Source of the DNA: an uncultured virus (IMG/VR IMGVR_UViG_3300042860_002775)
Lineage: Duplodnaviria; Heunggongvirae; Uroviricota; Caudoviricetes
IMG/VR virus record: IMGVR_UViG_3300042860_002775
Direction: 5' to 3' (one strand)
Length of the DNA stretch: 64,000 nt
Shown piece after piece: positions 3,144 to 45,468 of the stretch (positions within the stretch are counted from its first letter, which is position 1; the number at the start of each line of letters is the position of its first letter). The notes under the pieces are model-generated. The model saw only the letters and a list, made by a program, of their open reading frames with translations, was not told where the DNA came from and ran no database searches. The position numbers were made by a program, and so were the translations under genes.

Positions 3144-3989
3144 TTAATATCCTCCACTGGCCGGTGGTGTTCCAGTCGGTGTTGCAGAAGGTGTTGCGGG
3201 AGGGGTTTCGGGTGGTGTTTCGGGTGGTGTTCCGGGTGGTGTTCCGGGTGGTGTTTCGGGTGGTGTTCCGGGTGGTGTTCCGGGTGGTGTATCATCTGGC
3301 GGTGTGTTTGTTGGCGTATTTGTTGGCGTATTTGTTGGCGTATTTGTTGGCGTACCATACGGCGAACCCGCTGGAGTTTTTGTTGGCGTGTTTGTTGGCG
3401 TTTCCGTCGGCGTGTTTGTTGGTGTTTGCGTACTTGTAGGCGTACCATAAGGAGTCCCAGCTGGCGTTTTTGTTGGTGTGTTTGTTGGCGTTTCCGTTGG
3501 CGTTTCCGTCGGAGTCGGTGTCTCTGTTGGTGTTTGAGTTGGAGTCTGACTGGCACCATATGACAGACTTATCGTCGGAGTAGATGTCGGGGTTGGTGAT
3601 TCTGTAAGTGTGGGCGTCGGTGTTTGCGTGACTCCATACGAAAGACTAATAGATGGCGTTGTTGTAGGCGTTTGTGTAGGAGTTTCGGTTGGAGTATCCG
3701 AGACCGTCGGGGTTGGTGTTGGTGTCTCTGTCTCAGTCGGAGTCTGAGTTGGAGTAAAATCTATATTCGCAAAAATATAACGCAAATCTGTTCCGCTTTT
3801 TTTATAATTTACATCAAAATTTATTTCTTGATTTGCGGTAGTTATAGGTTCAAATATAGCAGACAAATCGGTGTTACTTGATTTGAATTCAACGTCTGGA
3901 GCAGGAGATGTATCTGGCAATTTTGGAGCAAATATTGTGTCCAGATCAACATCAACGCCATTTATTTTAACTGTATAACCAGTAGGCAT
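3144..3989 (-). CDS. Thr/Pro-rich mucin-like virion or fibre-associated protein
   Basis: Three short N-terminal repeats (DLDTIF/DLSAIF/DLRYIF), then ~200 aa of TPTx and TPP(G/E) repeats. Lies directly downstream of the giant fibre gene. Confidence 0.75.
3200..3352. repeat. 12-bp coding tandem repeats (TPPG/TPPE and TPTN units)
   Basis: Repeated gggtggtgtt(t/c)c units followed by repeated tgttggcgtatt units. Confidence 0.85.
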
Positions 3990-3990
3990 T

Positions 3991-6900
3991 TTACTTCTTT
4001 AGTTCATTTATTTGGCGTTTTAGTTCCTGTACTTCAGCCGATAGTTCTTTTACCGCAGTAGTCAATACAGCAACAAGTTTTCCATACTCAAGTCCATCTA
4101 TTTCACCGTTTGAGTTCTTATAAACAATAGTAGGTAATATTTCATTTACTTCTTCGGCAATCATACCAATGTCATTTTTTATATCCTTGTTATTCCAATC
4201 AAACATTACTGGTCTTAGATTATTTATAATATTTAAGCCGTTGGTTAGATTTCTGATGTTGGTCTTATATTTTCTGGATGATGTGCTATTAAATGAAGTT
4301 GCGGCCACAGTGGAATTTACAGTCATTGCGCCATCAAACTCGGATGTTCCCAACCAATCAAATTTTCCATCGCTTTGGACGAATCCTCTTTGTGCCCCGC
4401 CCGCATAGAATTGTATATATTGTCCTCCTGTAGCTACTAAGCTTACTATTCCGCTCGGAGTTAAGTCTATTTGTCCACCAGACGCATTACTTGGACCTCC
4501 TGTAATGGTCAATGTACTGCTTCCATCATTTCTAATACCGATAGAATCTGTGACATAAATACCACCAGTAACTTTCAACTTTGAACCATCCCATACCAAC
4601 TTATTACCACCAGAATTACCAACTGAGAATTTTCCATCATTTGCAAGATACCAGCCGGTTCCTGTGTCATACCCAGTCATTCCGGCATATACATTTCCTG
4701 TACTATTTAAAGTAATATTTCCGCCCGTCAATGTGGTTGAACTAATAGTCCAGCCACCAATCTTTCCACCAGTACTTGCTTGAAGGTCCGCGCACGTAAT
4801 CGTACCGTTGCTATTAAGAGTGGTAGAACCTCCCGTCAAGGTGGTTGCACCGATAGTCCATCCACCTATTGTTCCTCCAGTTGAAGTAATATTTCCGTTG
4901 GATGCAACTTGAAATACTCCACTACCTATGTTTAGGGTTCCGCCCGTTATTGTTGGAGAATTTATTGATATTGCCGCACTTATTGTTCCTGCACCAATTT
5001 TGTCCGCTGATATTGTACCAGCTGTTATTACACTAGCATTGAGATTTTTTATATATGCATTATTTATCTTGACGCTACTTCCATCAACTTCGAATGGAAC
5101 AATTGTTCCTGTACCATCTGGTTTTACTATCTTGAATTGGTCTACTTCTACAATAAACGAAGAAGATGTTGATGAGTTTGCGAGCAACTTGAATCCTGCC
5201 ACTCTATTTCCAGCAGATACTTTTAGTACATATTCTGATAGTACTCCAGAAAGTGAGCTTGATACTGTAGACACTGTAGAAATAGTTCCTGCCAAAGATG
5301 CACTATTTGTTACAACACTAGCCGATAGTACACTTATTGAACTTGCCAATGAACCAGATGCATTTGAGAAGGCAAATGCCACCTGACCAATACTTGATGC
5401 AAATGATGCGCTATTTCCAGTAAAGCTGGAAGATATTATAGTTATGGTTTGAGCAAGCGACGAGCTAAAATCTACATTTGTAGTATTTACTTGAGTTATG
5501 GAAGCCGCCAGTGACGAACTGTTGGTACGTATGCTAGACGACAGTGAGGTAATGCTTTGCGCCAAGGAAGAGCTAAACGTGGTATTAGTCGTATTGTTCT
5601 GGGTAATGGAAGACGCCAGTGATGCGCTGTTTGCACTGATGCTAGACGATAACGTGGTGATACTTTGCGCCAGTGACGAACTGAACGTGACGTTGGTGGC
5701 GTTTGAAGTGGAGATGGATGCAGCCAGTGACGCACTATTGGTACGTATGCTAGACGATAGCGTGGTGATGCTTTGCGCTAGGGACGAACTGAACGTGACG
5801 TTGGTGGCGTTTGAAGTGGAGATGGATGCCGCTAGCGAAGAGCTAGCCGTATTGACACTGGCTGACAGCGTGGTGATGCTCTGAGCAAGAGACGAACTGA
5901 ACGTGACGTTGGTAGTGTTTACTGTGGAGATGGATGCCGCTAGTGATGCGCTAGCCGTGTTGACACTGGCTGACAGCGTGGTGATGCTCTGAGCAAGAGA
6001 CGAACTGAACGTGACGTTGGTAGTGTTTACTGTGGAGATAGACGCTGCCAGTGACGAACTGGCTGTATTGATGCTAGACGACAGTGTGGTAATGCTCTGA
6101 GCCAGAGAAGAGCTAAACGTCACGTTTGTCGTATTTACCGTGGAGATGGATGCCGCTAGAGAGGCACTGTTGGTGCGTATGCTAGCCGACAGTGTGGTAA
6201 TGCTCTGAGCCAGAGAAGAGCTAAACGTGACGTTGGTAGTGTTTACTGTGGAGATGGATGCCGCTAGCGAAGAGCTAGCCGTATTGACACTGGCTGACAG
6301 CGTGGTGATGCTTTGCGCTAGAGAAGAGCTAAACGTCACGTTTGTGGTATTTACCGTGGAGATAGACGCTGCCAGTGACGAACTGGCTGTATTGACGCTA
6401 GCCGACAGCGTGGTAATGCTCTGAGCCAGAGAAGAGCTAAACGTCACGTTTGTGGTATTGACTGTGGAGATGGATGCCGCTAGTGATGCGCTAGCCGTGT
6501 TGACACTGGCTGACAGCGTGGTGATGCTTTGCGCCAGAGACGAACTGAACGTGACGTTGGTAGTGTTTACTGTGGAGATGGATGCCGCTAGTGATGCGCT
6601 AGCCGTGTTGACACTGGCTGACAGTGTGGTAATACTCTGAGCCAGAGACGAACTGAACGTGACGTTTGTGGTATTTACCGTGGAGATGGATGCCGCTAGT
6701 GATGCGCTAGCCGTGTTGACACTGGCTGACAGCGTGGTGATGCTTTGCGCTAGAGAAGAGCTAAACGTCACGTTTGTCGTATTTACCGTGGAGATAGACG
6801 CTGCCAGTGACGAACTGGCTGTATTGACGCTAGCCGACAGTGTGGTGATGCTTTGCGCCAGAGATGAACTGAACGTGACGTTGGTAGTATTTACTGTGGA

Positions 6901-9900
6901 GATAGACGCTGCCAGTGACGAACTGGCTGTATTGACGCTAGCCGACAGTGTGGTAATGCTCTGAGCCAGAGAAGAGCTAAACGTCACGTTTGTCGTATTT
7001 ACCGTGGAGATAGATGCCGCCAGTGACGAACTGGCTGTATTGACGCTAGCTGACAGTGTGGTGATGCTTTGTGCCAGAGAAGAGCTAAAAGTGACGTTGG
7101 TGGTATTGACTGTGGAAATGGATGCCGCTAGCGAAGAGCTAGCTGTATTGACACTAGCTGACAGTGTGGTGATACTTTGCGCCAGTGACGAACTGAACGT
7201 CACGTTTGTGGTATTTACCGTGGAGATAGATGCCGCCAGCGAGGCACTTGTCGTGTTGACGCTGGCTGATAATGTGGTGACGCTTTGCGCCAGAGAAGAG
7301 CTAAACGTGACGTTGGTGGTATTGACTGTGGAGATGGATGCCGCCAGTGATGCGCTAGCCGTGTTGACACTGGCTGACAGCGTGGTGATGCTTTGCGCCA
7401 GAGAAGAGCTAAACGTGACGTTGGTAGTGTTTACTGTGGAGATGGATGCCGCCAGTGATGCGCTAGCCGTGTTGACACTGGCTGACAGTGTGGTAATACT
7501 CTGAGCCAGAGACGAACTGAACGTGACGTTTGTGGTATTTACCGTGGAGATGGATGCCGCTAGTGATGCGCTAGCCGTGTTGACACTGGCTGACAGCGTG
7601 GTGATGCTTTGCGCTAGAGAAGAGCTAAACGTCACGTTTGTCGTATTTACCGTGGAGATAGACGCTGCCAGTGACGAACTGGCTGTATTGACGCTAGCCG
7701 ACAGTGTGGTGATGCTTTGCGCCAGAGATGAACTGAACGTGACGTTGGTAGTATTTACTGTGGAGATAGACGCTGCCAGCGAGGCACTTGTCGTGTTGAC
7801 GCTGGCTGATAATGTGGTGACGCTTTGCGCCAGAGAAGAGCTAAACGTGACGTTGGTAGTGTTTACTGTGGAGATGGATGCCGCTAGTGATGCGCTAGCC
7901 GTGTTGACACTGGCTGACAGCGTGGTGATGCTTTGCGCCAGAGAAGAGCTAAACGTGACGTTGGTAGTGTTTACTGTGGAGATAGACGCTGCCAGTGACG
8001 AACTGTTTCCATCAATTCTAGATGATAATGTAGCAATACTCTGCGCCAACGATGAACTAAAATTTGTTTGGGTAGTAGTTGCATTTGTTACTGCTGAAGA
8101 CAGCGATGCACTATTTGTATTAATGCTAGAAGATAATATAGTAGTTCTTGATGCCAAAGATGAACTAAATGTAGTTTGTATATCTTCTACAGTTTTTATA
8201 AATGCTGCCAAAGATGAACTATTTGTAGTAACTCTTGAATCTAACTCGGTTGTTCTTGAAGCAAAAGATGAAGAATTATTTGTAGCCGCAAGTTCTATAG
8301 TTGTTATAGAAGCTGCCAACGAAGAACTGTCTATGAATATAGCACTAGCAGAAATAGAAGCTATTCTTTGTGCTAAGGAAGAACTTGCATTTGTAAAAGC
8401 AAAGTCAGTGCTAGTTATTGCAGCAGACAATGAACTGCTAAAAGTTAAAAAGCTAGAAGATAACGTAGTAGATCTGGATGCTAGAGAAGAACTTGCAGTA
8501 ACAAATACAGTATCTACATTTGTTATAGAAGCTGCTATCGATGCACTCGTAAAATTGATGCTTGCCGACAATGCCGTAGATACTTGAGCAAGCGATGAAG
8601 AAGTATCTGTAAATGTAGTTTGAACATTTGTTATAGATGCGGCGAGAGATGCACTATTTGTTTTTACGCTAGACGATAACGTGGTGATGCTCTGAGCCAG
8701 AGACGAACTAAACGTGACGTTAGTCGTATTAGAAGTGGTGATGGATGCCGCCAGCGACGCGCTATTACCAGAAATTGTGGATGACAGCGAGGTAATGCTT
8801 TGCGCCAGAGATGAGCTAAACGTGGTGTTGGTGGTGTTCGTCTGGGTGATCGAAGACGCCAGTGACGCGCTGTTGGTGCTGATGCTAGACGACAGCGTAG
8901 TGATGCTCTGCGCCAGAGATGAGCTAAACGTGGTGTTGGTGGTGTTTGTCTGAGTTATGGACGCTGCCAGTGACGCACTGTTGGTACGTATGCTAGACGA
9001 CAGCGTGGTGATACTTTGCGCCAAGGAAGAGCTAAACGTGACGTTAGTCGTATTAGAAGTGGTGATGGATGCCGCCAGCGACGCGCTATTACCAGAAATT
9101 GTGGATGACAGCGAGGTAATGCTTTGCGCCAGAGATGAGCTAAACGTGGTGTTGGTGGTGTTCGTCTGGGTGATCGAAGACGCCAGTGACGCGCTGTTGG
9201 TGCTGATGCTAGACGACAGCGTAGTGATGCTCTGCGCCAGAGATGAGCTAAACGTGGTGTTGGTGGTGTTTGTCTGAGTTATGGACGCTGCCAGTGACGC
9301 ACTGTTGGTACGTATGCTAGACGACAGCGTGGTGATACTTTGCGCCAGAGACGAGCTAAAAGTGACGTTGGTCGTGTTTGTCGTGGTGATGGATGCCGCT
9401 AAGGAAGAACTGTTACCATCGATTCTGGAAGATAATGTGGTAATGCTCTGGGCCAGAGACGAACTAAATGTGGTATTGGTTGTATTCGTCTGTGTTATAG
9501 ATGACGCCAACGACGCACTGCTAATGTTTATACTAGAAGAAAGAACAGTGACTCTCTGAGCCAGAGAAGAACTATAATCCGTATTTACGCTGTCGATTTC
9601 GGTGATAAATGCAGCAATAGAAGCGCTCGTTGAATTTACAGATGAGTTTAATATTGTTGTTCTATCCGCAAAAGATGAAGAGTTTGTTACTACCGCCTGT
9701 TCAACCGTGGTAATAGACGCGGCCAAAGAAGCGCTATCTATAAAAACTGCACTTGCGGAGATCGACGCCAGTCTTGATGCCAAAGAAGAGCTTGCACTAG
9801 AAAATGCAAAATCTGTGCTGGTTATTGCCGCCGACAATGAGCTACTAAATGTATCGAAACTCGTATTAAGTTGAATGGAGCGTTCAGCGAGCGAAGCACT

Positions 9901-12216
9901 TGTAGTGGAAAATACGGTATCTACGTTTGAAATTGTGGCAGAGATTGAAGAACTAACTAAATTTATGCTAGACGATAATGTGCTAGATCTTGTAGCTAAA
10001 GAAGAGCTTAGATCGGTAAATGTTTCTTCAATTGTTGTTATTGTAGAAAGTAATGATGCGCTAGTATTTACAAAACTTGAAGAAAGCGTAGATGCCCGCG
10101 ATGCCAGTGAAGAACTAAATGTTACAAATGTTTGTTCCGTTGTAGATATAGAAGCCGCTAACGAAGAACTTTGAAAATTAGCATCAGAATCTAATGTGGA
10201 AACTCTGGAGGCAAGGGACGAGGAATTATTTACTACAGTTTGTTCAATGCTTGATATTGACGCGGCCAAAGATGCACTGTCGATGAAAATGGCACTGGCA
10301 GATAATGCAGATATTCTTTGTGCCAATGACGAACTGGCATTAGTAAATGCGAAATCCGCAGTGGTTATTGCGGCAGAAAAAGAAGAACTAAATGTATATA
10401 CACTTGCAGATATGACCGTAGTTCTAGAAGCTAATGAAGATGACAGTGTATTTACCGCAGTCTCATTTTCGGAAATGAAAGAAGAAAATGAAGAACTAAC
10501 CCCAGTTATGTTGGAGTTTATTACCACCAATCTTTCTGCCAAAGAAGATGATGCTTCAGAAAACACAGTCGAAGATTCCGATATAGATGCGGCAAATGAA
10601 GAACTTACATTTTCTATGTTAGAAGATAATGTGGAACTCCTCTGTGCGAGAGATGACGACGTAGATACAAAAGTTTCATCAACGGAAGTGATCGTGGCAG
10701 AAATGGAAGAACTAACCGTGGTTAGCTCAGATGATAATGTTGATATTCTTTGTGCAAGCGAAGATGAAGAATCTGAAAACGTACTGTCCGTAGTAGTAAT
10801 TCTTGATGCTAAAGATTGACTTGTGTTTGAAAAACTTGCTTCTAAAAGTTGAGTTCTTTCTGCCAAAGAAGAGGATACCGTAACAAACGCCGTATCTGCG
10901 TTTTGTATCAATGCCGCTATTGATGCGCTATTTTCATTAAAATTGACTGCGGCAGCTATCGTTGTTATTCTTCCGGACAGAGACGATGATGCTTCCGCAA
11001 ATGTAATATTATTTTCCGATATCGACGCCGCCAGAGAAGAACTTGTATTTGAAAACGAACTTCTCAATTCATCAATAGTCAGGGCAGACGATGCACTGGT
11101 AGTAGTAAAAGAATCTCTTACAGATTTTACACTGGAATCCAAGGATCCAGAAACATTAGTGAATGAAGTACTTAGTTCTACAATCTGTGTGGCGGCTGAC
11201 GAACTGAAAGTTGTTAGTGTGGAAGATAGCTGGGTTATTGTTGCTGCCAAAGACGCACTGTCCAAGGAACCCGATCCAGCTATATACGAAGAAAGGTTTT
11301 CTACTTTAGCGGCCAGAGAAGAACTTGCATTTATAAACGTGGTATATGTAGTATCTATTGATGAAGCAAACGATGCACTATTGAAATTTGCATTAGAACT
11401 TATCGTGTCAATTCGAGTTGCAATAGATTCGCTAGTGGTAGTCAACGTAGCTTCTATTGTTTTTATGGAGCTTGCCAGAGAACTACTGTTTATTGATAGC
11501 GACGAACCTAAACTAGTTATATTTGCCGCAAAAGAAGAAGAACTATCTGAAAAAGCTCCATATACCGAAGTTATATATGCCGCAGTTGATGCGGAATTTT
11601 GCATCAAGGTTTCGCTAAATGCTCCGTAACTTGCAGACAAAGAAGCAGAAACTTGATCCAATTTTATTATTACGGAAGAAGATATGCTGGTTAGAGAATT
11701 GTTTAGTGAAGTAACTCTTGTACTAAGAGAACTGGACGCCGCAGTCAATACCCTAACATTGGTAGATATGGACGAAGAAAATAGTCCAAGTTCTTGTCTA
11801 ACTACATCGATAGACTCGGTAGGAAGCGGTATTATTGGTCCACCACCCTGCTGTATTGTAAGCGTTCCATTATTTTGGTCTGTCAGCTTTACAGATCCGA
11901 CGTATAAACTCCCCGAAGTTACATATATATCTTTCCATCTTCTGGAAGGACTTCCCAAATCATACAAATTATCTGTCTGTGGGATTATATTTTGATTTAC
12001 TTGACTTAAATCAATAGAACCACTTACAATTGAACCAGAACCGCCAGAATTTAAGTAAGGTAAGCTGGTCCACGAGGCAGTTCCATTCCCTATCTTAAGT
12101 CTACCAGTATCCAGTTCAAATCCGGCTTCGCCTGGATATAATGTCGGATTTACTGCCGCCCAATTTGAAGCAGTATCTCTTTTTAGCTGAATTCTAGAAA
12201 TTCTGATTGTTGCCAT
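3991..12216 (-). CDS. Giant tail fibre/adhesin (2741 aa): Mtd/hyaluronidase-type N-terminal anchor, long S/T/A repeat stalk, tail-tip-like segment, Gly-rich beta region, C-terminal S74 intramolecular chaperone
   Basis: N-terminus [36 protein letters not shown]. Segment [25 protein letters not shown] resembles gpJ/DUF1983. C-terminus [27 protein letters not shown]..coiled coil. Confidence 0.9.
5480..9560. repeat. 108-bp (36-aa) coding tandem repeat array, including a 324-bp higher-order duplication
   Basis: Unit [36 protein letters not shown] occurs ~23 times at 5480-8010, with more copies at ~8600-9560. The block starting at 8714 recurs at 9038. Confidence 0.95.
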
Positions 12217-42456: not shown

Positions 42457-42484
42457 ACTATACCATAAAAACTAAGGTTGTCAA
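42457..42484 (-). promoter_or_regulatory. sigma70-like promoter TTGACA-N16-TATAGT with extended -10 (TGG)
   Basis: The -10 ends 6 nt before the methyltransferase ATG, suggesting a leaderless transcript. Confidence 0.7.
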
Positions 42485-42514: not shown

Positions 42515-44740
42515 TTATGGACCATAACGTATGATGATTCTTACATTACTTGGTGCTGAAATACCTGTAACATTAACAAGTGCTGAACTACTATCCGTTG
42601 AACTAGTCATTCCATCAAAGGTACGTGTGGCGACAACTTTGTATGTTCCACCAGTATCTATTACGACTGGTGATACGGTGTATGTCGATGATGTAGCACC
42701 AGATATAGCCACATTATTTCTATACCATTGATATGATATTGTACCTGCTCCAGAATCTGTAACAGGCGGGGCAGGCGTTGCGGACACGCCGCTTACATCC
42801 TGAAATCCAGTCGTTCCTCCATTAATGAGCGTACTGAATGATAGTGGTGTTAATATACCGTTGGCTGTGTTTACTGTATACCACTGACCATTATCAAAGG
42901 ATTGACCATACAACGTTGAACCGGCTGGACCGAAGGTGATCTGAAGCCTACCTATTATCGGAGAACCAACTGTGCCTATATTCGTGGCAGCTATAGTACC
43001 ACTTAACGGACCAGACGGCAGAGTCAGATTATAAAACATAGAACCGTTGGAAGTAGTGGCATATAATGTACCATTACTAGTAATGGCTATGTCTCCAATA
43101 TAATTGTTGTTTGTTGTAGGTATGCCGCCCGTGAGCGTAGCGGACGAAATGCCATTAGAAACCATTGTAGGGGTTCCTGATCCGTCATATTGTAATGCGA
43201 CTCGCACCAGCATATGTGTACCCGGCATAATATACCAATAAGCATTATTCCAATATGCTCCGTTGTCTGGTCGGCTGGTGGTCAATTGCCCCAAATTGAC
43301 TGGTGTAGAATTGGCAGCTTGGTTCCAATACCACAAAGACGCCAGACCACTTCCACTCGGATTGGGTGCCGCAAAAAATACTTGACCTCGGGTAGTATCA
43401 AACGCTATTCCGTTTATTGCGTTTGTTGATGTTGCACCTACAAGAGTAGACACATCTCGCACAGCCCTCTTTGTTCCAGTATCGCTAATTTCATAAATAT
43501 TGTTGTCTGTACCAACAGTATAATAATACACCGATACTGATGCGAAGGATGATAGTGTAAGTGTATTTCCAAACTCAACACTTGTAGCAACAGGCTGAAC
43601 GGTAAAGATAGGTGCCTTTAATGTTCTAACAACGTTTACTGTTGCTGTGTTGCTGTCTGTAAAACTGGATACACCATCTATAGTACTGGTTGCTCTAAGT
43701 TTATACGCACCAGAGTCTACACTGGCAGCGGCACTCACAGTATATGATCTAGAAGTTGCTCCTGTTATAATAACATCATCTTTGTACCATTGATATGTTG
43801 GAGTTGGTGTACCAGTAGCCAACCCAGATAATGTAAATGATTGATTGAGATCAATGGTCACGGAGGATGGTTGAGCAGTAAATACTGGTGCCGCAAGGGT
43901 TCTAACTACGGTTACTGTTACTATATTACTATCAACTGAACTGGATGCTCCGTTTAGTGTATTGGTGGCAACAACCTTATAATCGCCGCCATTGGCACTA
44001 ACAGCAGAACTTACGGTATATGATGTAGATGTTGCTCCAGTTATAGCGACGTTGTCTTTATACCATTGGTATGTTGGAGTTGGAGTGCCGGTCGCTAATG
44101 CCGATAGTGTAAATGACTGTGTAAGATTTACTGTTGCGGCGACGGGTTGCGTAGTAAATGTGGGCGGCACCAAAACTTCTATGACAGTAACTGCCACTGC
44201 ATTACTGTCCGTAGACACTACCGTTCCGCTAACAGTATTACTTGCTGATACTTTGTATGTGCCCGCGTCAGCAAGAACTGCCGATGATACTGTATATGTA
44301 GCAGATGTTGCACCTGATATAGCGACATTATTTTTAAACCATTGATATGTTGGTGGAGAGTCGCCCGTGGCAAGAGATGATAGTGTAAAAGATTGGCCGA
44401 CAGATGCGTTAGTAGCAACTGGTTGTAGTGTAAAACCCGGCGGATTGACAACACTTAAATTTGCAATATTTGAAAGACTACTTCCTAACGAGTTACTAAC
44501 TTCTACGGTATATGCGGCAGCATCCGATATTGTAACATTCGCCAGCACATACGATATAGATGTTGCACCGGCAATATTCGTTCCTCCTTTTTTCCACTGA
44601 TATGTAAACGGGGGTGTTCCGCTGGCGGTAGCATCAAAAGTAACAGTCTGACCAACTTTAGCAACCGGACTAACGTCTTGAGCATATGCCATACTGCATA
44701 ATGCAAGTATATAAAAAAGTATCTTGATATAGTTCTTCAT
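42515..44740 (-). CDS. Secreted Ig-domain repeat protein with an inserted beta-propeller-like domain
   Basis: Signal peptide MKNYIKILFYILALCSMAYA. Five I-set-like units (P.FT.QP...TYQW.K....I.GAT...Y......D.G.Y). Confidence 0.85.
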   Translation of the reverse strand: MKNYIKILFYILALCSMAYAQDVSPVAKVGQTVTFDATASGTPPFTYQWKKGGTNIAGATSISYVLANVTISDAAAYTVEVSNSLGSSLSNIANLSVVNPPGFTLQPVATNASVGQSFTLSSLATGDSPPTYQWFKNNVAISGATSATYTVSSAVLADAGTYKVSASNTVSGTVVSTDSNAVAVTVIEVLVPPTFTTQPVAATVNLTQSFTLSALATGTPTPTYQWYKDNVAITGATSTSYTVSSAVSANGGDYKVVATNTLNGASSSVDSNIVTVTVVRTLAAPVFTAQPSSVTIDLNQSFTLSGLATGTPTPTYQWYKDDVIITGATSRSYTVSAAASVDSGAYKLRATSTIDGVSSFTDSNTATVNVVRTLKAPIFTVQPVATSVEFGNTLTLSSFASVSVYYYTVGTDNNIYEISDTGTKRAVRDVSTLVGATSTNAINGIAFDTTRGQVFFAAPNPSGSGLASLWYWNQAANSTPVNLGQLTTSRPDNGAYWNNAYWYIMPGTHMLVRVALQYDGSGTPTMVSNGISSATLTGGIPTTNNNYIGDIAITSNGTLYATTSNGSMFYNLTLPSGPLSGTIAATNIGTVGSPIIGRLQITFGPAGSTLYGQSFDNGQWYTVNTANGILTPLSFSTLINGGTTGFQDVSGVSATPAPPVTDSGAGTISYQWYRNNVAISGATSSTYTVSPVVIDTGGTYKVVATRTFDGMTSSTDSSSALVNVTGISAPSNVRIIIRYGP

Positions 44741-44782
44741 TTTGGCCTATATTGATGGCAGGCATCATTTTGTCAAGATAAT

Positions 44783-44810
44783 AAAACAGCCCCATATTTC
44801 TATGGGGCTG
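44783..44810 (-). terminator. Intrinsic terminator with a GAAA tetraloop
   Basis: Minus strand CAGCCCCATA-GAAA-TATGGGGCTG-TTTT, a 10-bp perfect stem. Confidence 0.85.
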
Positions 44811-44878
44811 TCAGGGGTGATGGACTTATCACCCTCCACCAGTCAGTTTGTGGAGCCACTGACAACCATAACCACTTT
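44783..44878 (-). ncRNA. Candidate structured small RNA (three-way junction with complementary loops)
   Basis: Three nested perfect stems at 44809-44864, a promoter upstream at 44883-44910 and a terminator downstream. No credible ORF. Confidence 0.55.
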
Positions 44879-44882
44879 AATT

Positions 44883-44910
44883 AGACTATATACTGTTGTA
44901 TATTTGTCAA
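44883..44910 (-). promoter_or_regulatory. sigma70-like promoter TTGACA-N16-TAGTCT
   Basis: Same 16-bp spacer as four other promoters in the window. Confidence 0.6.
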
Positions 44911-44915
44911 GGGCA

Positions 44916-45362
44916 TTATAACAGTTTGTGTGTCTTTGGTCTTTGCTCTTCAATCTTCAGTTTAGGAAGATCAACTTTTATTGTTCCGTTTGTGAAGTCG
45001 GCTTTGATCTTATTTTTGTCAATGCCTTCACCCACGCTGAACGAGCGTGTGAAACTAGAACGCTTAATTTCTTTATATAGGTACTTTCCTTTAGTTGTGT
45101 TTTCATTGTTAGTTTTTTTACCTCCTCGTATTACAAGCGTGTCGCCCTCAAGATCTACAGAAACATCTTCCTTACTCAATCCAGCAACATCTGCTTCAAG
45201 AACATACTTGTCATCATATTCAACAACGTCTACTTTTGGGTAACTGTGCTTGGTATAAGATCCAGCGTAAGGTGTTACGCCGAAACTGTTGAAAACATCG
45301 TCAAATAGACGATCAAATGGGGTGAGAAACTCATCCCGTGTATATCTGCTTAGTGTACTCAT
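44916..45362 (-). CDS. Small heat-shock protein (Hsp20/alpha-crystallin); likely start 45362
   Basis: PKVDVVE....Y.LEADVAG..KEDV.V, FTRSF, A.FTNG.I.V.LPK. SD-like AAAGGA precedes MSTLSR. Confidence 0.93.
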   Translation of the reverse strand: MSTLSRYTRDEFLTPFDRLFDDVFNSFGVTPYAGSYTKHSYPKVDVVEYDDKYVLEADVAGLSKEDVSVDLEGDTLVIRGGKKTNNENTTKGKYLYKEIKRSSFTRSFSVGEGIDKNKIKADFTNGTIKVDLPKLKIEEQRPKTHKLL

Positions 45363-45468
45363 ATTTTTGTATCCTTTGTTTATGTCGGCTCCATAATGGA
45401 CACCGACGCACACTATATATCATTTTTTGTGCCAACAGTTTTGTCACACCTTTTACCTCGTAGACAAC

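Follow-up and report, generated by a model that had tools for sequence, protein, structure and literature searches.

The wcaG RNA (RF01761) was described by Weinberg et al. 2010 as a riboswitch candidate of marine and cyanophage origin located near exopolysaccharide and high-light genes, and that survey rates it as 'probably' cis-regulatory (PMC2864571). Two cyanophage genome papers repeat this description only (PMC9964418, PMC9602691), and a full-text literature search on wcaG RNA returned surveys, cyanophage genome annotations and one structure-prediction methods paper, with no functional study by title or abstract. Its consensus is made up, in order, of a leader, a hairpin, UGGUGCGGA, a helix (uGGGg..cCCCg), CC, a further hairpin and UGGCGaGcc. 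This RNA is known from T4-like cyanophages and marine metagenomes. The locus examined here is in a large myovirus-like contig from a clade not shown to be of cyanophages, the IMG/VR record IMGVR_UViG_3300042860_002775 of an uncultured virus (64,000 nucleotides (nt), referred to as the window). On its minus strand, behind an hsp20 gene, is an RNA of about 95 nt that appears from its sequence to be a new single-module variant of this known orphan kind. The explanation that we favour, and consider reasonably probable, is a discrete phage non-coding RNA, a single-module relative of wcaG, that closes a chaperone unit and would serve as a stable RNA docking a partner, not as an attenuator of the downstream gene for an immunoglobulin (Ig)-repeat protein.

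Conservation of the fold was assessed on an alignment of 27 distinct sequences (A4), consisting of the window and 26 relatives from viral contigs, made with a covariance model (R1) built from seven sequences. Over two helices, P1 and P2, and an intrinsic terminator, 96.1% of cells were paired and 18 pairs had changed on both sides; none of 500 shuffles reached any of the measures, and the covariation score was 0.58–0.62 against at most 0.12 when the pairing partners were slid. All six pairs of P1 had changed on both sides, with 96.9% of cells paired, while P2 had 93.2% of cells paired and five such pairs, and seven of the nine terminator pairs covary. In a check that does not depend on alignment, a hairpin of at least 5 bp ended 0–1 nt before UGGUGGAGG in 31 of 32 distinct sequences. 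A second covariance model (R2), built from nine sequences with the window lineage excluded, matched the window at 44812-44871 with 29.7 bits (E 4e-6). An earlier reading of the window from its sequence only had proposed a structured non-coding RNA on this strand, GC-rich in an AT-rich context and followed by a GAAA-loop intrinsic terminator, and to this extent it is borne out. The G+C content is 0.495 for the RNA stretch and 0.379 for the whole window, the minimum free energy (MFE) of the stretch is -42.9 kcal/mol (z -3.98, with none of 200 shuffles equally stable), the terminator is present, and there are conserved, covarying homologues.

The leader, which ends 2 bases before P1, can form a 3-bp pseudoknot with bases in the 5' portion of the P1 loop; these are UGG 44868-44866 and CCA 44853-44851 in the window. 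At least three Watson-Crick pairs were possible in 15 of the 17 distinct leader/loop combinations, a value reached by none of 5000 permutations when the test was restricted by position and to Watson-Crick pairs, and the triplets themselves vary (UGG:CCA, AAG:CUU, AUG:CAU, AGG:CCU and CAG:CUG). The crossing is a 2-nt UU and the return loop is A-rich, as in a classical H-type pseudoknot. The preQ1-II/SAM-II class of small aptamers has the same topology, in which a short stem joins the leader to a hairpin loop, the first loop has 2 nt and the third is rich in A; this class has no sequence or model match to the window RNA. P1 is followed directly by UGGUGGAGG, which was invariant in all 27 rows of A4, including 11 that were not fetched by the motif. 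Two readings of the base of P2 are possible, one with U:R, G.U and G:C pairs and a bulged A, the other with an A.C mismatch, and the bulged A is favoured because A and G alternate opposite the U. The terminator begins 3–9 nt after the core in every row. In the window lineage only, the CUCCAC in the P1 loop can alternatively pair with GUGGAG; this alternative is weakened in L246, where the loop is UGUCCCAUAA. From the comparison of sequences, we regard the folded RNA of about 95 nt, with its core of knot and hairpin, as real.

The relatives of the RNA are found at a fixed place. When 25 loci encoding Hsp20 relatives in IMG/VR were searched with R1, 14 had the RNA on the same strand, behind hsp20 or behind dnaK. 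These are 14 of the 16 loci with an Hsp20 at least 49% identical, the remaining two (L002 and L014) being cut off, and R1 found the RNA in none of the nine loci with an Hsp20 of 34% identity. In loci with dnaK behind hsp20, the RNA comes after dnaK. It was present in 11 of 41 DnaK loci, beginning at the dnaK stop codon in ten and approximately 340 nt downstream in the other (L257). The nearest related record (G001), a fragment of 58 kb with a completeness rating of 24%, has one copy of the element. In L007, a TTGACA between hsp20 and dnaK (3454-3511) precedes a perfect 12-bp inverted repeat, UGUUUGGGGCUA..UAGCCCCAAACA. The repeat has a spacer of 10 nt, lacks a U run and lies immediately ahead of the dnaK ATG; it might serve as an operator or as a hairpin resembling an RNA thermometer.

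A pattern for the core found 93 stretches, of which approximately 25 show this RNA elsewhere, for instance in tRNA arrays (L041, L054, L087, L096, L069, L071 and L105). In three of these arrays (L041, L054 and L096) the match to the Rfam wcaG model begins 2–3 nt after an encoded CCA, and in L087 the R2 match begins 12 nt after one. The forms in tRNA arrays are without the hairpin and U run that terminate the hsp20/dnaK forms. Of the 29 hits to what was intended as a control pattern, eight also have a hairpin before the motif, and the control set is not clean because of these eight, at least five of which look like members of the family. In the five (L032, L035, L043, L057 and L060), a hairpin of 6–9 bp ends right before UGGUGGAGGGU and a plausible P2 is present. 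Family membership probably extends beyond the sequences analysed here, towards a higher G+C content. No DNA match, and no Hsp20 match at E 1e-8, was found among 50,697 isolate phage records. Bacterial genomes gave 50 pattern matches, a number that we estimate to be comparable to that expected by chance; none was convincing, the best R2 score was 22.9 bits and the P1 hairpin was found in none of the eight that were read. As judged from these sequences, this appears to be an RNA family of uncultured aquatic phages, and in the lake-type clade of the window it ends the chaperone unit.

The gathering cut-off of the Rfam wcaG model is 42 bits. Below this value, the model covers three of the tRNA-array forms end to end (L054, L041 and L096, with 33.0, 32.0 and 29.9 bits, respectively), and R2 matches the same places at 22–27 bits. 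Canonical wcaG loci were also picked with a pattern, and the 20 that were tested all passed the cut-off (54.8–104.5 bits), with tRNAs following within 100 nt in four. In 72 canonical loci there were 162 units consisting of a hairpin and UGGYG, against 7.75 in shuffles, and two to four units stand in tandem. An extra upstream UGGUGGAG..CCC unit, which lies outside the Rfam model and has the exact motif of the window, was found in 32 of the 72. This unit resembles the window RNA in that the invariant UGGUGGAG comes after a hairpin and a short helix is closed by CCCU, and differs in that the second helix is only about 3 bp (UCA/UGA), there is no terminator of its own and neither R1 nor R2 detects it. 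In individual loci (L125, L129, L142, L145, L173 and others), one or two further units of a hairpin with UGGUGGAG or UGGUCGGGA are located 30–140 nt upstream of the Rfam match. Canonical wcaG looks like a variable array of one unit.

Like wcaG, the window RNA is a phage-borne orphan in which a hairpin is followed directly by UGGUG, an arrangement found in the window (ACUGAC-UGGUG), in 31 of 32 sequences of the family and in 56 of the 72 canonical loci. In both, the next helix opens with GGA and closes with CC, the A being unpaired. The window linker and helix (UGGUG-GA-GGGU..ACCC-CU) keep this frame with different letters, the linker being UGGUGGA in the window and UGGUGCGGA in wcaG, and the Rfam alignment of L054 has a 2-nt deletion of CG. 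Both families have members beside tRNA genes, and an intrinsic terminator often follows. By eye, the leader of wcaG also seems to complement the first hairpin loop; the statistical test of this pairing was made in the window family only. Unlike wcaG, the window RNA has one module rather than two or more, with neither a third hairpin nor a UGGCG tail. The second wcaG module (hairpin P3 and UGGCG(A/U)GC) was not found in the window, where P2 is followed only by the terminator hairpin and no UGGYG. The element is classed as a single-module variant or relative of the wcaG building block, not as a member of RF01761, because canonical wcaG is missed by both R1 and R2, and the window by the Rfam wcaG model. 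The earlier statement that the element belongs to no recognized family is not borne out, as its nearest kin is a known orphan, although the window itself fails the wcaG model.

In the explanation that we favour, the RNA is built, from 5' to 3', of an H-type pseudoknot (leader UGG with CCA in the P1 loop), UGGUGGAGG, P2 and a generic terminator, with the first three bases of UGGUGGAGG linking P1 to P2. It would be made as the tail of the hsp20/dnaK transcript and, in the window, also from its own promoter, yielding a stable RNA either from the 3' end of the chaperone transcript or next to it. Together, the knot and P2 may keep the invariant UGG(UGG) in place for docking, and the docking partner would be a protein or the 3' end of an RNA. 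On these sequences, the building block of an RNA that has been an orphan riboswitch candidate since 2010 can occur alone, here as a 60-nt core that contains the 9 invariant nt and keeps its position after phage hsp20/dnaK genes, and the same core is present in phage tRNA arrays. It offers a minimal, well-delimited construct for probing, for ligand or protein capture and for tRNA-binding tests. The question moves from the metabolite that controls exopolysaccharide genes to the partner of UGG(UGG) where stable RNAs and chaperone transcripts end. For annotation, it defines a family missed by Rfam 15.

Several observations weigh against this explanation. A4 was fitted to our own model, which favours that model, and RNAalifold on an unfitted MAFFT alignment recovered only the base of P2, with its bulged A. 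P1 is missed there because MAFFT places it in two registers, and pair counts were therefore made on model-fitted alignments. A looser pseudoknot test, taking the longest run anywhere and allowing G.U pairs, gave a value reached by 1607 of 2000 permutations. About 16 of the 27 sequences had been fetched with a pattern that fixes UGGUGGAGGGU..ACCCCU, and the invariance of the 9-nt run is tested only by the other 11, which were found through dnaK synteny or a model (L246, L250, L254, L260, L252, L253, L251, L258, L015, L257 and L244). The conserved fold (-38.6 kcal/mol) is not the nearest-neighbour MFE structure of the window, which is a third fold (-42.9 kcal/mol); the three-way junction considered below, with the remaining eight terminator pairs, has -35.9 kcal/mol. 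These energies are close, and the fold was decided by sequence comparison and not by thermodynamics. The kinship with wcaG is drawn from a common motif, a common architecture and sub-threshold scores: the window has no wcaG match at the gathering cut-off, nor at E up to 10 on 44650-45000, and canonical wcaG was found by R1 in 0 of 11 loci and by R2 in 0 of 20. The promoter of the RNA is absent among the 18 sites of a consensus promoter scan of the window, which showed no enrichment (14.6 expected from shuffles), and was missed because TAGTCT fits TATAAT at only three of six positions. In metatranscriptome run X4, one of four runs compared as contigs only, contigs cover 44813-44937 and 44834-44878; these stand for presence in RNA libraries that may include DNA, and give no transcription, ends or strand. 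The partner and function of the docking site are pure inference.

The structure originally proposed for the RNA was a three-way junction with kissing loops GACU/AGUC, likened to purine-riboswitch aptamers or the Alu domain of the signal recognition particle (SRP), and we consider it very improbable. All four of its helices can be drawn on the window sequence, the complementary segments being present at UGUCAG 44864-44859 and CUGACA 44814-44809 (closing stem), UCCAC 44854-44850 and GUGGA 44839-44835 (hairpin 1), GGGUGAU 44834-44828 and AUCACCC 44821-44815 (hairpin 2), and GACU 44844-44841 and AGUC 44826-44823 (loops). Hairpin 2 is conserved and covarying and corresponds to the upper 7 bp of P2. 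Hairpin 1, which is the CUCCAC/GUGGAG pairing, is seen in the MFE structure of the window, and the junction is only 2.7 kcal/mol above the conserved fold without being the MFE structure itself. Among the 27 sequences, on the other side, pairing of the closing stem amounts to 40.9% of cells, and close relatives (L003, L004 and L006), in which CUAAAG replaces CUGACA and the core is kept, have lost this stem, while hairpin 1 has 63.8% of cells paired with none of its five pairs changed on both sides. GACU is part of the 3' strand of P1, whose six pairs all covary. The four kissing columns are paired in 80% of the A4 cells, but complementarity between the loops is not above permutation (3.67 matched, 3.77 permuted, with the observed value reached by 1798 of 2000 permutations). 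It is lost in G001/L244, L246 and L254, which change loop 2 and leave loop 1 as it is; in G001 loop 2 has become UUCCA. Homologues were found, without covariation support for the loop-loop pairs. Neither the closing helix nor the loop pairing of purine riboswitches and the SRP Alu domain is conserved, and no Rfam model of either was matched at E up to 10.

A riboswitch that terminates transcription would make the pseudoknot, UGG and P2 an aptamer, with a ligand deciding whether the terminator forms or transcription reads through into the Ig/Hoc-like gene. The 'probably' cis-regulatory rating of wcaG as a riboswitch candidate, given in the 2010 survey (PMC2864571), points this way. So do a compact, pseudoknotted core with 9 invariant nt, reminiscent of small aptamers, a terminator close behind it in every row and downstream genes on the same strand, and by eye every terminator has a C-rich 5' strand with which the G-rich UGGUGGAGGG could pair. 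The genes after the RNA are, however, unrelated, while the chaperone gene before it is constant: they are Ig/Hoc-like in the window and L107, ART-PolyVal-like (ADP-ribosyltransferase family) in L013, L088 and L061, and encode small membrane proteins in L007 and L015. Near-identical cores are followed by four unrelated terminator hairpins, with loops GAAA (window), UUUU (L037/L244) and UUUC (L254) or a GGCUCCC..GGGAGCC stem (a run X4 contig), and no conserved overlap with an antiterminator was seen; from these sequences, terminators appear to be exchanged whole, as cassettes. The tRNA-array members and four of the 20 canonical wcaG loci adjoin tRNAs, not protein genes. In addition, the Ig gene (ATG at 44740) has its own TTGACA (44776-44771), 36 nt before the ATG. 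Its geometry, like that of a methylase promoter in the window, would give a leaderless start, which argues against control of the Ig gene from the promoter of the RNA. Attenuation of the Ig gene is unsupported because downstream genes vary while hsp20/dnaK is constant upstream, terminators are swapped whole and the Ig gene has this TTGACA. We hold the riboswitch to be unlikely and the RNA to be probably discrete or operon-terminal, and of the two roles offered by the sequence-only reading the stand-alone phage small RNA is the better option. For such an RNA there is a terminator, no open reading frame (ORF) and promoter-like hexamers that lie outside the consensus scan, and in the dnaK-bearing relatives there is no room for a promoter.

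The latter observation, that the RNA starts at the dnaK stop codon in ten DnaK loci, also fits an element at the 3' end of the chaperone transcript, or elsewhere of a tRNA transcript, that blocks 3' exonucleases or directs processing and has no role in trans. The placement of hsp20 and the RNA between two terminators (45497-45470 and 44812-44785) and the start of the tRNA-array matches shortly after an encoded CCA are in keeping with it as well. A mere stabilizer would need neither an invariant 9-nt run nor a conserved pseudoknot, and where the RNA directly follows hsp20 an interposed TTGACA-N16-TAG..T suggests separate synthesis. This possibility, to which we give a rather low probability, overlaps the docking RNA that we favour and does not exclude it. 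More speculative, and in our view quite improbable, is that the unit of knot, UGG(UGG) and helix docks a tRNA-like RNA by its 3' CCA end, by analogy a minimal counterpart of a T-box without Stem I. Phages would have such units after their tRNA genes, in wcaG arrays and closing the chaperone operon, where the units would detect, retain or process the ends of tRNAs. UGGUG complements CACCA. A near copy of a CCA end of this kind, GCUCCACAA, is present in the P1 loop of the window lineage. If tRNA ends do dock here, GCUCCACAA could occupy the site in cis, by the pairing of hairpin 1, as a built-in competitor switch. The T-box antiterminator, whose UGGN bulge pairs with the NCCA 3' end of a tRNA, likewise has a conserved single-stranded UGG(U) beside a helix just upstream of a terminator, and the family is T-box-like in that UGGUGGAG is the exact complement of CUCCACCA, which is presumably the 3' end of tRNA-Ala and tmRNA (transfer-messenger RNA), and in having relatives in tRNA arrays. 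The window RNA, unlike a T-box, has no Stem I, specifier or T-box sequence and no Rfam T-box match, and the resemblance is one of principle only. The terminator, moreover, is exchanged without change to the core, where a T-box has competition between antiterminator and terminator.

The features of the locus are listed in Table 1. The 5' end of the RNA is placed by promoter geometry alone.

Table 1. Elements of the RNA and its flanking genes in the window
Feature	Position	Strand	Basis
TTGACA, -35-like hexamer of presumed RNA promoter	44910-44905	-	sequence read
TAGTCT, -10-like hexamer, 16-nt spacer from -35	44888-44883	-	sequence read
Presumed RNA, ~95 nt, to terminator U run	44783..44877	-	model R1 match 44783-44879, 101.9 bits
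Leader UGG, pseudoknot 5' strand (partner CCA 44851-44853)	44866..44868	-	leader/loop permutation test
P1 5' strand GUCAGU	44858..44863	-	covariation
P1 loop GGCUCCACAA, contains CCA (44851-44853) and CUCCAC	44848..44857	-	alignment and pairing tests
P1 3' strand ACUGAC, includes GACU, 'loop 1' of the earlier three-way junction	44842..44847	-	covariation
Invariant UGGUGGAGG, UGG linker then base of P2	44833..44841	-	27/27 rows
P2 hairpin, loop AAGUCC; base UGG(A)GGGUGAU / AUCACCC-CU-G	44813..44838	-	covariation, RNAalifold
Intrinsic terminator GACAGCCCCAUA, GAAA, UAUGGGGCUGUU, U run	44783..44812	-	sequence and terminator call
hsp20, conserved upstream neighbour	44916..45413	-	Pfam HSP20 E 2.3e-22; PHROG 432
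Downstream gene, 741-aa Ig-repeat Hoc-like protein, outside RNA	42515..44740	-	Pfam Ig_3 E 4e-47; PHROG 4069

The promoter that the sequence-only reading gave to the RNA, TTGACA-N16-TAGTCT at 44910-44883, stands as far as its letters and positions are concerned, and is outside the consensus scan. TTGACA-N16-TAGAGT, with equal spacing, precedes the RNA in two divergent relatives (L070 and L050), and TTGACA or TTGACC is found at a comparable distance before the RNA in L107, L070, L050, L048 and L055. From these sequences, a sigma-70-like promoter belonging to the RNA itself is plausible. Contigs from runs X1 and X10 both end at 44930, inside hsp20, which we read as an assembly branch point, and stretches that contigs do not cover carry no weight either way. 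The two run X4 contigs represent relatives of the RNA, one with a different terminator (44813-44937) and the other with dnaK upstream (44834-44878). Elsewhere in the window, the DNA methylase gene (ATG 42450) has TTGACA-N16-TATAGT at 42457-42484 (minus strand), fitting the consensus at 11 of 12 positions, with an upstream TG and ending 6 nt before the ATG. The Ig gene has a weaker TTGACA-N17-AATATA at 44741-44776 (minus strand) that ends 7 nt before its ATG. As read from the sequence, both geometries would give leaderless mRNAs.

The terminator hairpin (44812-44785) has 12 pairs, six of them G-C, below its GAAA loop, with the U run after it. It is considered a generic part because a second GAAA-loop terminator is found in the window at 61461-61442. 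The start of hsp20 is ambiguous, being either GTG at 45413 (165 amino acids, aa) or ATG at 45362 (148 aa); the relatives in L007 and L013 are 148–152 aa. The ART-PolyVal-like protein encoded downstream of the RNA in L013 (3653-4258, plus strand), and also in L088 and L061, all three divergent relatives, is 201 aa long and scores 25.1 bits where the cut-off is 31.2. No homologue of it was found in the window (best tblastn E 0.72).

Other known families and readings were considered. Rfam 15 gave no match at the gathering cut-off anywhere in the window. At E up to 10 the best were MicC (22.6 bits, plus strand) and sroB (22.4 bits, minus strand), both rejected as matches that rest largely on the terminator hairpin. 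ARAGORN found no tRNA or tmRNA on either strand of the window, and there was no Rfam match to either. The plus-strand ..ACCCUCCACCA was considered as a tRNA 3' end and set aside, as only the minus strand accommodates the G.U pairs of both P1 and P2, the GNRA loops and the U tail. A small ORF behind the Shine-Dalgarno (SD)-like GGAGG was also rejected; no start codon is suitably spaced from it, and the only frame that stops at the conserved U-R-R behind CCCC has four codons. The U-R-R pattern is better explained by a U:R pair at the base of P2. Pairing with the anti-SD of 16S rRNA fits at GGAGG only, and the UGAU extension of the window is not conserved in L250, L055 and L050. The manA motif (RF01745), a cyanophage orphan, is located in 5' untranslated regions of ibpA (Hsp20-type) chaperone genes according to the 2010 survey (PMC2864571). 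It shares a phage origin and a chaperone neighbourhood with the window RNA, which is found after hsp20, not before it, and has no manA match.

The gene content of the window is that of a large myovirus-like phage and includes genes for a baseplate wedge protein, a tail fibre, SbcCD, a primase, PhoH and peptide deformylase, as well as carbamoyl- and glycosyltransferases. In the tail-fibre gene (3991-12216, minus strand, 2741 aa), TTGACA, in plus-strand letters, recurs between 5852 and 7904 at multiples of 108 nt (5852, 5960, 6284, 6500, 6608, 6716 and further positions). This 108-nt spacing suggests that the giant tail-fibre protein contains a 36-residue tandem repeat.

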